This document shows, piece by piece, positions 17,703 through 20,947 of a stretch of DNA of 64,000 nt (the stretch's first letter is position 1; each line of letters starts with the position of its first letter). The notes below the pieces were generated by a model. It searched no databases. It had not been told where the DNA came from and saw only the letters and a program-made list of their open reading frames with translations. A program made the position numbers and the translations under genes. The DNA comes from Candidatus Gastranaerophilales bacterium (GTDB lineage: Bacteria > Cyanobacteriota > Vampirovibrionia > Gastranaerophilales > JAILCC01): contig JAQVHS010000003.1 in assembly GCA_028696075.1 (NCBI GenBank), positions 121,639-185,638 on the forward strand, in the 5' to 3' direction.

Positions 17703-17930
17703 ATGAAAATTAAAATAAAAGAGGTTGCAAAAGAAAAAAGACAGTGGAGTTTGTATCGTTTGGCAAAAGAAATAGGTTTAACTCAGCAAACAATATACAG
17801 CTGGGCTTCAGGAAGAACCCAGCCTTCCTACGAAAACATGGACAGAATTTGCGATATTTTAAAATGCACAATGGGTGAACTTTTTGAGGCAGAACCTGTT
17901 CAGCAAAAACTCAAACTTAAAAGAGTTTAA
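17703..17930 (+). CDS. XRE/Cro-family helix-turn-helix transcriptional regulator
   Basis: WSLYRLAKEIGLTQQTIYSWASGRTQPSYENMDRICDIL is a typical HTH_3 pattern. GAGGA lies 6 nt before the ATG at 17703. Confidence 0.75.
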   Translation: MKIKIKEVAKEKRQWSLYRLAKEIGLTQQTIYSWASGRTQPSYENMDRICDILKCTMGELFEAEPVQQKLKLKRV

Positions 17931-19267
17931 CCCCCCAAATTCTTGACAAAACCGGGTAAATCCGTAGCCTCATTAGGTCCGCAAATAATATTAAATTCAG
18001 GCAGCTCTTCTTTTATTTCCTCGAGTAAATCCGAAGCAAACCCGGGGATAATAAGATTATTATGCGAAACTTTTTTATTCAGTCCGGCTGCTCTGACACT
18101 TTTTGCTATAATTTCACCCGTAAATTTTGAAGCAGACCAGGCAGTAAGCACGCTCATTCCGTCAGAATCCGTTATCACAAGATAACTGCCGTCGGGTATA
18201 TTTTCAAGCTCATTTACTACGGAAAAATATGTAAGAGCAAAATTTGTTGTCACAAAAACCGGTGAATTAGGCTGCGGTTCATTGATTTCATATAATTTTG
18301 GCTCTACCTGCAAAGGTTTTTGGGGGTCGGTATAAATATTTTGCCTCAAAGTAATCAACGTTGTCATCAAAGCTCTGTCAAACTCGTCAAATATCAAAAG
18401 CCCGGTATATTTACAGACTAAAGCCGATGCTTTAACCGTATCAAGCGCAATATTCCCCGTAGTATTAAATTCTATCATCACGGGAAAGCCTAAAGGTTCA
18501 TATTTTTTTTCGATTGCACTGCGCCTAATCATTGTCAAAGGTTCAATAATACTGCTGTCAATCTCCTGATGAAGTGATAAAACTATCTCCTTAACGCCTT
18601 TTTCGAGCAGATTTGCAGAAGCTTCGGCAAGGTTCTCGAAGGTTGAAGCATTTACAACAACAGGGCAGGAATATTCTTTATGTAACTTCGTAAGCTGTTC
18701 TGTGGCTGCATCTTTCAAATATATAAGAGGATTTTTAACGGTAGTATCATCCAAGACCTCCACCATATTTTCATAATTATCTGTAATTAAAATCAGAGGG
18801 ATTTCTAAAGCTGCAACGGCAAGCGCTGTTTGTTTAAAATTTTTGCCGCCGTCAAACAGTGCAACGGCATCAACATTAAAAGTTTCTCCCACTCTGTCTA
18901 TTGAAAATTTTTGTATATCAGCTAATTTCTTATCAAATTCGATATCTGCGCTGTTAAGCTTCATTGCAAAAACAGTTTGATTAACAAAAGTTTTATCGTG
19001 GCGAAACATTACATTTTCATCGCCCATTATAAGCTCATTTGGAGAATGACCGAATGTTACGGCTTGCTGCGGTTTCCTGTTTTCAGAAGCAAATAAGGCT
19101 TTTAACTCTTCGTCTAAATGCGGGCAAAGGTTCATATTTATATCATTCTTTGCAAGCTTCATTGCAAATGCCATACAAGTTGAGCAGCCGCATTCTTTGC
19201 AGTTTGCTTCGGGTGTTTTTTTACCGCCGGGAAGAAATTTAAAAATTTGAATACCTGATAATGCCAT
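17927..19267 (-). CDS. acsC: Corrinoid iron-sulfur protein large subunit (AcsC/CdhE-like)
   Basis: The N-terminus MALSGIQIFKFLPG...NCKECGCSTCMAFAMKLA...CP matches the AcsC [4Fe-4S] motif and leader. Its length of 446 aa is typical. The start overlaps the acsD stop (TAATG). Confidence 0.8.
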   Translation of the reverse strand: MALSGIQIFKFLPGGKKTPEANCKECGCSTCMAFAMKLAKNDINMNLCPHLDEELKALFASENRKPQQAVTFGHSPNELIMGDENVMFRHDKTFVNQTVFAMKLNSADIEFDKKLADIQKFSIDRVGETFNVDAVALFDGGKNFKQTALAVAALEIPLILITDNYENMVEVLDDTTVKNPLIYLKDAATEQLTKLHKEYSCPVVVNASTFENLAEASANLLEKGVKEIVLSLHQEIDSSIIEPLTMIRRSAIEKKYEPLGFPVMIEFNTTGNIALDTVKASALVCKYTGLLIFDEFDRALMTTLITLRQNIYTDPQKPLQVEPKLYEINEPQPNSPVFVTTNFALTYFSVVNELENIPDGSYLVITDSDGMSVLTAWSASKFTGEIIAKSVRAAGLNKKVSHNNLIIPGFASDLLEEIKEELPEFNIICGPNEATDLPGFVKNLGG

Positions 19268-20166
19268 TAATTCTCTCCCGTAAATACTTTCAAAGCTTCT
19301 ATTACTTCAGGGTGCCATAATACGAGAATATCAGCACCTGCATTCATAACAGCGGAAGCCGTAGCAGCTTCCCAAGCTACGGCACGATCTTTTAAACCGC
19401 CATAGCTCGGTGAAAAATCGTCGCTGCGGGCTTCTTTAGACTTCCAGGACTCTTCGCCGGCAAATACTATCACAGGCATATTCAAAGTTTCATCACCGTC
19501 AAGCCCCGCTAATTTTGTCCGTTCTATGATACTGTAGCCGTAATCCAAACCATATCCCAAAGCCCCCATATTAGGGTCAATCAGTATTCTATCCCTGCTT
19601 ATACCTTCTTCGTTTATTAAGATATTCAGCTCTTTTGCAAGGTTTATATCTATCGGCGTTCTGCCGATTATATAGTGATTAGTGTTTTTTAAAGGCTTTG
19701 AAATCTCTCTGTAATTGTCTTGCTCCGCTATGCCAAAAATACAATCTCTGTCTGCTATAGCTATAAGTTCAGGTAGCAATATTGCATCAAGTTCTTTTTT
19801 GTTAGCGCCTGTAACTATGAGTTCTTTTTTTGTAAGCCTTAATATTTCTTCAAAAAGTTTTTTTGCTTTAGGGATTTGGGCTTCGTCTTCTATATTAAAT
19901 TTAAGCGCCAAAAAATCAGAGTTGACTTTTTCCGCTTTAACCGCCCATTTTACCATATCAGATAACAAATCACACCGGTAATCCCTTAATACAGGCGAAT
20001 AATTCTTGGGCAAATTCATCAAAACTTCAAGCGCAAAAAGAGGCTTCGTATTACCTTTCTCCGACGAGATAAAAGGTAACGAGCAAACCTCAGGGGTGCG
20101 AATTTTCCCCGTATTTACAGGTCTTATTGATGATTTAAAAGTCTTTAACGGCAAAGTATAACTCAT
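19267..20166 (-). CDS. acsD: Corrinoid iron-sulfur protein small subunit (AcsD/CdhD-like)
   Basis: 299-aa TIM-barrel-like protein, translationally coupled upstream of acsC. I recognise the size and position as AcsD. The call rests mainly on context plus general similarity. Confidence 0.65.
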   Translation of the reverse strand: MSYTLPLKTFKSSIRPVNTGKIRTPEVCSLPFISSEKGNTKPLFALEVLMNLPKNYSPVLRDYRCDLLSDMVKWAVKAEKVNSDFLALKFNIEDEAQIPKAKKLFEEILRLTKKELIVTGANKKELDAILLPELIAIADRDCIFGIAEQDNYREISKPLKNTNHYIIGRTPIDINLAKELNILINEEGISRDRILIDPNMGALGYGLDYGYSIIERTKLAGLDGDETLNMPVIVFAGEESWKSKEARSDDFSPSYGGLKDRAVAWEAATASAVMNAGADILVLWHPEVIEALKVFTGEN

Positions 20167-20167
20167 A

Positions 20168-20947
20168 TTATTTCGTTTTTAAACTCTCTTTTGCATTGTT
20201 CCATAAACTGTCAAATTCTTCAAAAGAATACTCTTGAAGCGGTTTATCGGCAAGGCTCTCCATCTGCCTGAATCTTTTTGCAAATTTTTTATTGGCTTTT
20301 GCAAGCGCCAATTCAGGATTAATCTTGTGCCATCTTGCAAGATTGACCATAGCAAACAAAATATCGCCGATTTCTTCTTCCTGATTTTCTTTATCATCTT
20401 TTACAACAGCAGATTTAAACTCTTCAAATTCACTCTCAATACATTGATACAGACTGTTCAAATTTGGCCACTCAAAACCTGCTTTAACAGCTTTTTTGCT
20501 TAGTTTGTAAGCACACATAAGCGCCGGCAGAGAAAAGGGGATTCCATCTAAAACAGACTTGCGCTCGGGTTTTTCTTCCTTTTTTATAACTTCCCAGTTG
20601 TCAATTATATCTTTGGTAGAAGTTACCTTTGTATCGCCGAAAACATGCGGATGCCTTCTGATAAGTTTTTCGCTTATTCCCTGTGCAACATCTTCAATGT
20701 TAAAATACCCGCCCTCTTTAGCAATTTGGGAATGCAAAACAACCTGCAACAAAACATCACCCAATTCTTCCTGCAATGCTTTCATATCATTTTCATCGAT
20801 TGCATCTAAAGCTTCATAAGTTTCTTCAATAAAATTCTGCTTGAGCGAAGTATGGGTTTGCTCTCTATCCCACCGGCAACCGCCCGGAGAACGCAAAGTA
20901 TTTATTATATTTATCAAATTTTGTAAATTATTGTTATTATTGTTCAT
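20168..20947 (-). CDS. mazG: Nucleoside triphosphate pyrophosphohydrolase MazG
   Basis: Tandem MazG domains: CRWDREQTHTSLKQNFIEETYEALDAI, EELGDVLLQV and a second EEIGDILFAMVNLARW. Confidence 0.9.
   Translation of the reverse strand: MNNNNNNLQNLINIINTLRSPGGCRWDREQTHTSLKQNFIEETYEALDAIDENDMKALQEELGDVLLQVVLHSQIAKEGGYFNIEDVAQGISEKLIRRHPHVFGDTKVTSTKDIIDNWEVIKKEEKPERKSVLDGIPFSLPALMCAYKLSKKAVKAGFEWPNLNSLYQCIESEFEEFKSAVVKDDKENQEEEIGDILFAMVNLARWHKINPELALAKANKKFAKRFRQMESLADKPLQEYSFEEFDSLWNNAKESLKTK

Follow-up and report, generated by a model that had tools for sequence, protein, structure and literature searches.

What would a corrinoid iron-sulfur protein (CFeSP) do in a bacterium where the acetyl-CoA synthase (ACS) and CO dehydrogenase (CODH) that it normally serves are not found nearby? 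The question is raised by a stretch of 64,000 nucleotides (nt) from a Candidatus Gastranaerophilales bacterium, a gut-dwelling relative of the cyanobacteria that does not photosynthesise (assembly GCA_028696075.1, contig JAQVHS010000003.1, positions 121,639-185,638 of the forward strand), referred to below as the window, in which acsD and acsC, the genes for the two CFeSP subunits, lie directly behind mazG. The answer that we favour, with a probability of roughly 60%, is that AcsC/AcsD carries the cobamide as the middle part of a methionine synthase made up of several proteins, outside any acetyl-CoA synthase machine. The original prediction, made from the sequence alone, had proposed a methyl shuttle with a purpose other than acetogenesis; the genomic context favours this idea, and we specify it here as methionine synthesis. 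The features of the first locus are as follows.

20168..20947, minus strand: mazG, nucleoside triphosphate pyrophosphohydrolase, 259 amino acids (aa); TIGR00444 at 314 bits, cutoff 148.
19267..20166, minus strand: acsD, CFeSP small subunit (delta), 299 aa; Pfam CdhD 1.8e-21, PDB match at E 3e-49.
17927..19267, minus strand: acsC, CFeSP large subunit (gamma) with a [4Fe-4S] domain and a corrinoid-binding domain, 446 aa; NF003195 and PDB 2h9a_A.
17799..17824, minus strand: terminator-like hairpin about 100 nt 3' of acsC, a pattern match only, from a consensus scan.

The layout first described for these genes, with a 299-aa partner coupled to acsC by a TAATG overlap and beginning 1 nt after the mazG stop, is borne out by the open reading frames and by the junctions as read from the sequence. 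The acsD/acsC junction is ...GAGAAT TAATG GCA, and the mazG stop and the acsD start are separated by one nucleotide (AAA TAA T ATG). With no internal terminator, this gap implies that mazG and acsD are co-transcribed in this genome. NCBIfam identifies MazG as a canonical two-domain member of its family.

Both subunits were examined by sequence and profile searches. AcsC matches Pfam CdhD (1.9e-71) together with the FeS domain, scores 424 bits against the gamma-subunit model NF003195 (cutoff 306), and aligns over its full length (residues 1-443) with the large subunit of the Carboxydothermus hydrogenoformans CFeSP (PDB 2h9a_A, E 2e-87); it can also be aligned end to end with the solved large subunit from Moorella thermoacetica. 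Cysteines C23, C26, C31 and C48 make up the CX2CX4CX16C [4Fe-4S] motif, which is kept in all of the 120 closest homologs (120/120). The C-terminal corrinoid domain aligns well with solved CFeSP, including the SVLTAW segment, and is predicted to bind cobamide. AcsD matches the solved small subunits 4c1n_B, 2h9a_B and 4djd_D at E 3e-49, and its best NCBIfam subfamily model gave 246 bits, under the cutoff of 280. The initial assignment of the two genes is thus confirmed at the level of sequence, and AcsC and AcsD can be taken as genuine, intact CFeSP subunits. Mercury methylation by an HgcA-type protein was considered and rejected, as NF040863 reached only 66 bits (cutoff 275) over the corrinoid domain only, and the architecture is instead that of a full-length CFeSP.

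It had been claimed that mazG is the sole operon partner of the CFeSP. The claim overlooks a set of likely functional partners at a distance of about 20 kb: on the plus strand, four translationally coupled genes (40337-43938) encode a MesB-like protein, a CooC-like ATPase, FolD and AcsE. The first two genes are joined by a TAATG overlap, the ATPase gene and folD overlap by 14 nt, and folD and acsE are joined by ATGA. The second locus is made up as follows.

39853..40263, minus strand: helix-turn-helix protein with a C-terminal Cys-rich, zinc-ribbon-like tail, a candidate regulator, 136 aa; weak Pfam HTH_31/HTH_3.
40337..41416, plus strand: putative MesB-type, core methionine synthase-like Zn methyltransferase, 359 aa; from AlphaFold2 (AF2) fold, motifs and context.
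41416..42174, plus strand: CooC-family P-loop ATPase with a CxC motif (C110, C112), 252 aa; profile match to 3kje.
42161..43018, plus strand: folD, methylene-tetrahydrofolate dehydrogenase/methenyl-tetrahydrofolate cyclohydrolase; Pfam THF_DHG_CYH_C 3.6e-70 and THF_DHG_CYH 1e-32.
43015..43938, plus strand: acsE/MeTr-like methyl-tetrahydrofolate:corrinoid/iron-sulfur protein methyltransferase, 307 aa; PDB MeTr matches.
43955..43981, no strand assigned: perfect hairpin of 12 bp in the interval where acsE and rpoC2 converge, a likely terminator; a pattern match only, from a consensus scan.

The gene of the candidate regulator is divergent from the operon and has a counterpart at 54-55% identity in three related loci (L001, L002 and L006).

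Because sequence and profile searches of the PDB gave no match for the 359-aa protein, and Pfam only a faint one, its function was argued from fold, motifs and context. The alignment-based AF2 model was of high confidence (predicted local distance difference test, pLDDT, 91.9; predicted template modelling score, pTM, 0.92), and a Foldseek search of the PDB with this model returned MetE as the top matches (E 1.8e-8, TM score about 0.6, one barrel covered), with UroD next. The model suggests a single barrel like the C-terminal one of MetE, without the folate-binding N-domain. The motifs of the protein are collinear with those of E. coli MetE (IGSFP at 12/431, IDEP at 187/598, HxC at 229/641, D250/E665 and C327/C726), and the C-terminal HxC, Asp and PxCG follow the order and spacing of MetE His641/Cys643, Glu665 and Cys726. 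Forty homologs all keep S14, D188, H229, C231, D250 and C327. Of these residues, S14 and D188 would be the equivalents of Ser433 and Asp599, which take part in homocysteine binding, and H229/C231/D250/C327 form a zinc tetrad with a spacing of +2/+21/+98, compared with +2/+21/+97 in the core-MetE (MesB) of Dehalococcoides mccartyi, a protein of 343 aa with the ligands H215/C217/D236/C312 (PMC7005905). Ser433, Asp599 and the zinc tetrad are the markers of core methionine synthases, and MesB is described as having Asp in place of Glu665, with Glu484 not conserved (PMC7857596).

A barrel with such a site might also belong to a catabolic demethylase, in which a MetE/MtaA-like Zn protein moves the methyl group of a methylated thiol or other compound to CFeSP, AcsE passes it to tetrahydrofolate (THF), and FolD then helps to oxidise it or to use it as a one-carbon source. 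Three-component corrinoid demethylases follow the same logic, FolD is indeed in the operon, and the 359-aa protein has weak NCBIfam matches to MtaA/CmuA and MtbA (E 1e-4). However, the equivalents of MetE Ser433 and Asp599, which bind the alpha-carboxylate and alpha-amino groups of homocysteine or methionine, are invariant in the family; the fold search placed MetE ahead of UroD and listed no structure of MtaA among its top 50 matches. The family also co-distributes with MesB lineages, and the demethylation of methionine onto Co(I) is energetically unfavourable. We consider a demethylase quite unlikely, and prefer to read the protein as the homocysteine-binding part of a methionine synthase.

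The last gene of the operon encodes the protein that would connect this enzyme family with the CFeSP. The best PDB matches of AcsE are all MeTr structures (2yci, 2e7f and 1f6y, E about 1e-48), followed by an entry named dihydropteroate synthase (8e-33) and the folate domain of MetH (about 1e-16), and the PDB alignment shows the motifs of MeTr (GLSNVS and the Asp positions for pterin binding); the score against NF005719 was 219 bits, below the cutoff of 259. NCBI names the AcsE homolog 'dihydropteroate synthase' and the MesB-like protein 'hypothetical protein' in those Gastranaerophilales metagenome-assembled genomes whose names were seen, and JGI names some members of the two families '5-methyltetrahydrofolate corrinoid/iron sulfur protein methyltransferase' (AcsE) and 'methionine synthase II' (MesB-like). 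The NCBI annotation of both genes therefore looks wrong or empty.

The family profile of the ATPase aligned with the whole length of CooC1 (PDB 3kje; E 5.7e-23), CxC on CxC, and its matches to MinD (2e-11) and NifH were far weaker. All of the 28 Gastranaerophilales sequences compared share GKSGSGKT, a deviant Walker A, and C110-x-C112; a Walker A and a CxC are also present in a homolog from the Methanomassiliicoccales (archaeal locus L030). A third invariant cysteine, C136, is found in the bacterial clade of the ATPase, and the archaeal homolog (L030:11011-11763) is without it.

Is this operon a stable unit? A search of the genome collection with the 359-aa family yielded 35 loci. The ATPase and FolD directly follow the MesB-like gene in essentially all Gastranaerophilales loci, with the triad in about 27 loci, and either the operon or its MesB/ATPase/FolD core is kept across about 30 Gastranaerophilales genomes. 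The full four-gene operon with AcsE was found in L001, L002 and L044, the last from a very common gut species. AcsE of this type is widespread in Gastranaerophilales, and at least 20 contigs are apparently common to the lists of AcsE and MesB-like matches. AcsC and AcsD share the 64-kb window with the MesB-like gene, and on the 2.58-Mb contig of one relative the MesB-like operon, AcsE included, and acsDC are about 270 kb apart.

Outside the Gastranaerophilales, the archaeal locus L030 has the order AcsE, PurH, RACo, x, MesB-like, CooC-like ATPase, x, AcsC, AcsD, AcsB within about 13 kb (x, other genes), and this neighbourhood gives independent evidence from gene order that the 359-aa family works with CFeSP. 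In a second archaeal locus (L031) the MesB-like gene is about 1.6 kb downstream of RACo, and in some methanogens mesB is known from operons with acsCD (PMC7857596). None of the eight Nitrospirae loci (L033-L040) has acsC, acsD or acsE within 10 kb of the MesB-like gene. In both of those checked for the next gene (Nitrospirae/Thermodesulfovibrio, L038 and L040), it encodes a P-loop protein of 207 aa that has no relation to the CooC-like ATPase. Two open reading frames of L030, one of 637 aa between the ATPase gene and acsC (12205-14118) and one of 256 aa upstream of the MesB-like gene (9191-9961), have no Pfam match; the locus is GC-rich and these two calls are uncertain.

The conservation of acsDC itself was compared in five related loci with an AcsC identity of 45-60%. 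The adjacent acsD-acsC pair was present in all five, in unrelated surroundings.

L003: acsDC after a small open reading frame on the opposite strand.
L004: acsDC after a giant surface protein.
L041: acsDC after a giant surface protein.
L042: acsDC 3' of fliH/fliI and 5' of nifU/nifS.
L046: acsDC after a corrinoid adenosyltransferase of the CobA/CobO/BtuR type.

With the window included, acsDC is thus a free-standing two-gene module in six contexts, never adjacent to acsB, and none of the five related loci has CODH/ACS within 10 kb. Genes for cofactor handling flank acsDC in two of them, the adenosyltransferase upstream (L046:8439-8972) and nifU-nifS, for Fe-S assembly, downstream (L042:11465-13494).

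The same comparison bears on the emphasis that the original prediction placed on the linkage of mazG with acsDC. If nucleotide house-cleaning were tied to cobamide or methyl metabolism, mazG and the CFeSP would be functionally coupled, and the 1-nt gap and lack of an internal terminator do imply co-transcription. However, mazG was beside acsDC in none of the five relatives, at the identities given, and a tblastn search found no mazG in any fetched locus. This largely refutes a functional coupling, which we regard as extremely improbable. Because the synteny is not conserved in relatives, mazG is best seen as a chance neighbour, and its association with acsDC is probably incidental, reflecting how genes happen to be ordered here.

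Among most of the larger open reading frames of the window, neither Pfam nor NCBIfam gave a match to CdhC, ACS_CODH_B_C or Prismane/CooS. AcsB from the Methanomassiliicoccales locus L030, used as a tblastn query over 0.73 Mb in all (archaeal and Nitrospirae loci included), found nothing in the 64-kb window or in any Gastranaerophilales locus fetched. The family scans and the AcsB search agree with the earlier observation that no acsA/acsB-like gene is present in the 64 kb. Neither there nor in related loci totalling about 0.5 Mb was any ACS, CODH or RACo found.

An ordinary, dispersed Wood-Ljungdahl pathway, with a complete CODH/ACS elsewhere in the genome and with CFeSP, AcsE and FolD serving acetogenesis or CO2 fixation, would account for many of the parts, since its classical components include CFeSP, AcsE, FolD and a CooC-like ATPase, and the window is 64 kb of a source contig of 220 kb that is itself part of the genome. 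However, such genes normally cluster, as they do in L030, and there was no CODH/ACS near acsDC or the MesB operon in about 35 related loci. Genome reconstructions have described Melainabacteria as having no CO2-fixation pathway or genes (PMC4040986, PMC6349859; neither discusses CFeSP), and our search of the available literature library found no link between Melainabacteria or Gastranaerophilales and CFeSP, Wood-Ljungdahl or MesB-type methionine synthase. A dispersed pathway is in our opinion very unlikely.

A second possibility is an incomplete Wood-Ljungdahl pathway of the Dehalococcoides type, in which an AcsB-like decarbonylase encoded elsewhere and matured by the CooC-like ATPase cleaves acetyl-CoA and methylates CFeSP, which then supplies MesB and, through AcsE, the folate pool. 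D. mccartyi is reported to use AcsB, AcsCD and MesB in this way (PMC7005905). The tight linkage of a CooC-family ATPase with a conserved CxC to the MesB-like gene would be in keeping with it, and in L030 the MesB-like/ATPase pair is about 5 kb from acsB. However, there was no AcsB homolog in the window or in any fetched Gastranaerophilales locus, acsDC was never beside acsB in the six contexts, and the ATPase is linked to the MesB-like gene and not to acsCD. AcsE is present here and absent from Dehalococcoides, and with AcsE present methyl-THF already suffices as the methyl donor. We judge this arrangement unlikely, and return to the reading of AcsC/AcsD as the carrier of a methionine synthase loaded from methyl-THF.

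How might such an enzyme work? The parts have the observed identities, folds, conserved catalytic residues, operon structure and conservation described above, and from them we infer how the methyl group is passed on at each step, which way the flux runs and what the ATPase does. AcsE (MeTr) would transfer the methyl group of 5-methyl-THF to the Co(I) of CFeSP. The MesB-type enzyme would bind homocysteine at its His/Cys/Asp/Cys zinc site and take the methyl group from CH3-Co(III)-CFeSP, giving methionine and Co(I). Occasional Co(II) might be re-reduced by low-potential ferredoxin through the [4Fe-4S] cluster of AcsC, and since the organism seems to be a hydrogenase-bearing fermenter, ferredoxin would be expected to be plentiful. 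FolD would link the operon to the one-carbon pool of folate, and the CooC-family ATPase may be an accessory factor for metal insertion or activation. The whole would amount to a disassembled analogue of MetH, with AcsE as the folate domain, CFeSP as the B12 domain and the MesB-like protein as the homocysteine domain.

The ATPase is the least expected of these parts. CooC-family ATPases are normally nickel-insertion factors for CODH/ACS, and no Ni-dependent CODH/ACS client was found beside it in the window or in Gastranaerophilales loci; acsB is nearby only in the archaeal locus L030. Its role could be to serve a hidden AcsB client, to serve a new client such as the MesB zinc site, or to carry out activation in place of RACo; it might load MesB with zinc, or use ATP to reactivate the corrinoid where RACo otherwise would. 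Tentatively, and with less confidence than in the carrier role alone, we suggest that CFeSP works here independently of ACS, carrying the cobamide in a methionine synthase of four proteins (AcsE, AcsC/AcsD and MesB) with a dedicated non-nickel CooC-family ATPase, in Gastranaerophilales and possibly in further non-acetogens, of which a lone Fusobacterium is an example. One of 11 Fusobacterium proteomes has MesB, and every proteome with MesB had AcsC or AcsD (S1 Table, PMC7857596). This entry hints that CFeSP and MesB outside classical acetogens may extend beyond Gastranaerophilales.

Several points weigh against methionine synthesis as the function of this system. The first set concerns the 359-aa protein, whose membership in the MesB family is indirect. 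One criterion for MesB is a phmmer score of at least 130 bits against the characterised enzyme, UniProt A0A0V8M4G6 (PMC7857596), and the scores of 185-213 bits found here, at 30-36% identity, are to homologs from Methanomassiliicoccales and Nitrospirae and not to the reference MesB; both groups are listed as MesB-bearing in S1 Table of the same study (PMC7857596), which supports the assignment indirectly. The residue-numbering fingerprint of the D. mccartyi MesB had no exact match among 150 representatives. Neither the single sequence nor the family profile gave a PDB match, and in Pfam Meth_synt_2 went undetected, with only faint UroD at E up to 10. An hhalign comparison with E. coli MetE did align IGSFP, (N/R)xDM, KGxxxGPxT and IxIDEP, but at a probability of only 15%, and the pairwise alignment of the two proteins was not significant (score 120, against shuffles with a mean of 86.5, a standard deviation of 14 and a maximum of 142).

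The second set concerns the pathway around it. Methyl transfer from CFeSP to MesB is a published prediction only, for any organism (PMC7005905, PMC7857596). AcsE is not adjacent to the MesB/ATPase/FolD triad in most loci of the genome collection (GTDB species), the window yielded no MetF (methylene-THF reductase), and RACo, searched by tblastn with the L030 protein, was not found in the window or in Gastranaerophilales loci. As the CooC family normally inserts nickel, its member here hints that a nickel enzyme could be encoded elsewhere in the genome. Finally, if MetH or MetE were encoded elsewhere in the genome, the proposed system would be redundant.

Four known systems provide a measure of what is new here. 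The closest is the MesB/CFeSP route of D. mccartyi and other Wood-Ljungdahl organisms (PMC7005905, PMC7857596), which also has a single-barrel MetE-like Zn enzyme of about 340-360 aa with an HCDC tetrad, co-occurring with AcsC/AcsD, and in which MesB is likewise predicted to take the methyl group from methyl-CFeSP. Unlike that route, the present system has no AcsB/CODH in the window and belongs to a lineage reported to be without CO2 fixation; AcsE is in the same operon, of which a CooC-type ATPase and FolD are constant members. The position of AcsE in the operon suggests that CFeSP is loaded by methyl-THF and not by acetyl-CoA or the methyl branch of the Wood-Ljungdahl pathway. The apparent lack of ACS, AcsE in the operon and the fixed CooC-like and FolD partners are what appears to be new relative to the published route. 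MetH, including its split two- and three-part forms (PMC7857596), similarly combines a pterin methyltransferase module, a cobamide carrier and a Zn homocysteine module. Here, however, a heterodimeric [4Fe-4S] CFeSP is the carrier where MetH has a Rossmann/cap domain that binds B12, the homocysteine module resembles MetE where that of MetH is a BHMT-like barrel, and there is no domain for reactivation dependent on S-adenosylmethionine (SAM).

In comparison with the CFeSP/MeTr/ACS system of M. thermoacetica and C. hydrogenoformans (2h9a, 4djd, 2yci), AcsC, AcsD and AcsE are full-length homologs (E 2e-87, 3e-49 and 9e-49), whereas ACS, CODH and RACo are missing from the 64 kb and acsDC and acsE lie 20 kb apart. 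The ATPase resembles CooC/AcsF (3kje) in its full-length match, deviant Walker A and aligned CxC, but it stands beside a Zn-dependent methyltransferase and not a Ni enzyme, and has Cys136 as an extra invariant residue.

Other features of the window concern the host and the neighbourhood of the two loci. A GC content of about 37%, DUF4330, split rpoC1/rpoC2 and an [FeFe] hydrogenase all fit the assignment to Gastranaerophilales. An Rfam scan of the window brought only one tRNA to the gathering threshold, with no B12 or SAM riboswitch. The genes hom, thrC and cysE, for aspartate-family and cysteine biosynthesis, are at 33.6-36.7 kb, 4-7 kb from the MesB-like operon, and this proximity is a weak fit to an amino-acid biosynthetic neighbourhood. 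The remaining features are listed here.

4958-6421: monomeric group-B1 [FeFe] hydrogenase.
12013-16491, minus strand: protein of 1492 aa whose N-terminus is of the prepilin type (FTLSEVLISM...) and which contains Cys-rich repeats as well as numerous repeats of the GGL[IV]G type; giant proteins (1460-1926 aa) also adjoin acsDC in related loci.
21019-22908, plus strand: 629-aa protein, divergent from mazG, whose HExxH motif (AHELTHSLG), with EEAKAD after it, recalls the signatures of zinc metallopeptidases; no Pfam or NCBIfam match.
22946-27677, minus strand: four tandem genes of 440, 333, 334 and 439 aa with the appearance of a paralogous array; AAA ATPase domains in the outer two, no family match for the inner two.
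37712-39340, minus strand: malic-enzyme-like protein of 542 aa, extended at the N-terminus by about 170 aa that lie outside the malic-enzyme models.

The possible consequences go beyond this genome. MesB has been said to occur solely in Wood-Ljungdahl organisms, and AcsC/AcsD served as the check in that broad survey (PMC7857596). If our interpretation is true, Gastranaerophilales would be an exception to this rule, having retained CFeSP for methionine synthesis alone, and AcsC/AcsD used as a marker of the Wood-Ljungdahl pathway could mislead. It would also offer a clean natural system for the MesB-CFeSP idea, one in which methionine synthesis would be the sole plausible job of CFeSP. The pairing of a normally nickel-specific CooC-type chaperone with the MesB-like gene raises the question of its function; the proposed role would give CooC-type ATPases a new class of client, together with the first physiological role of CFeSP outside CODH/ACS. 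For the Gastranaerophilales, an uncultured group of the human and animal gut, it would account for one of the ways in which vitamin B12 is used.

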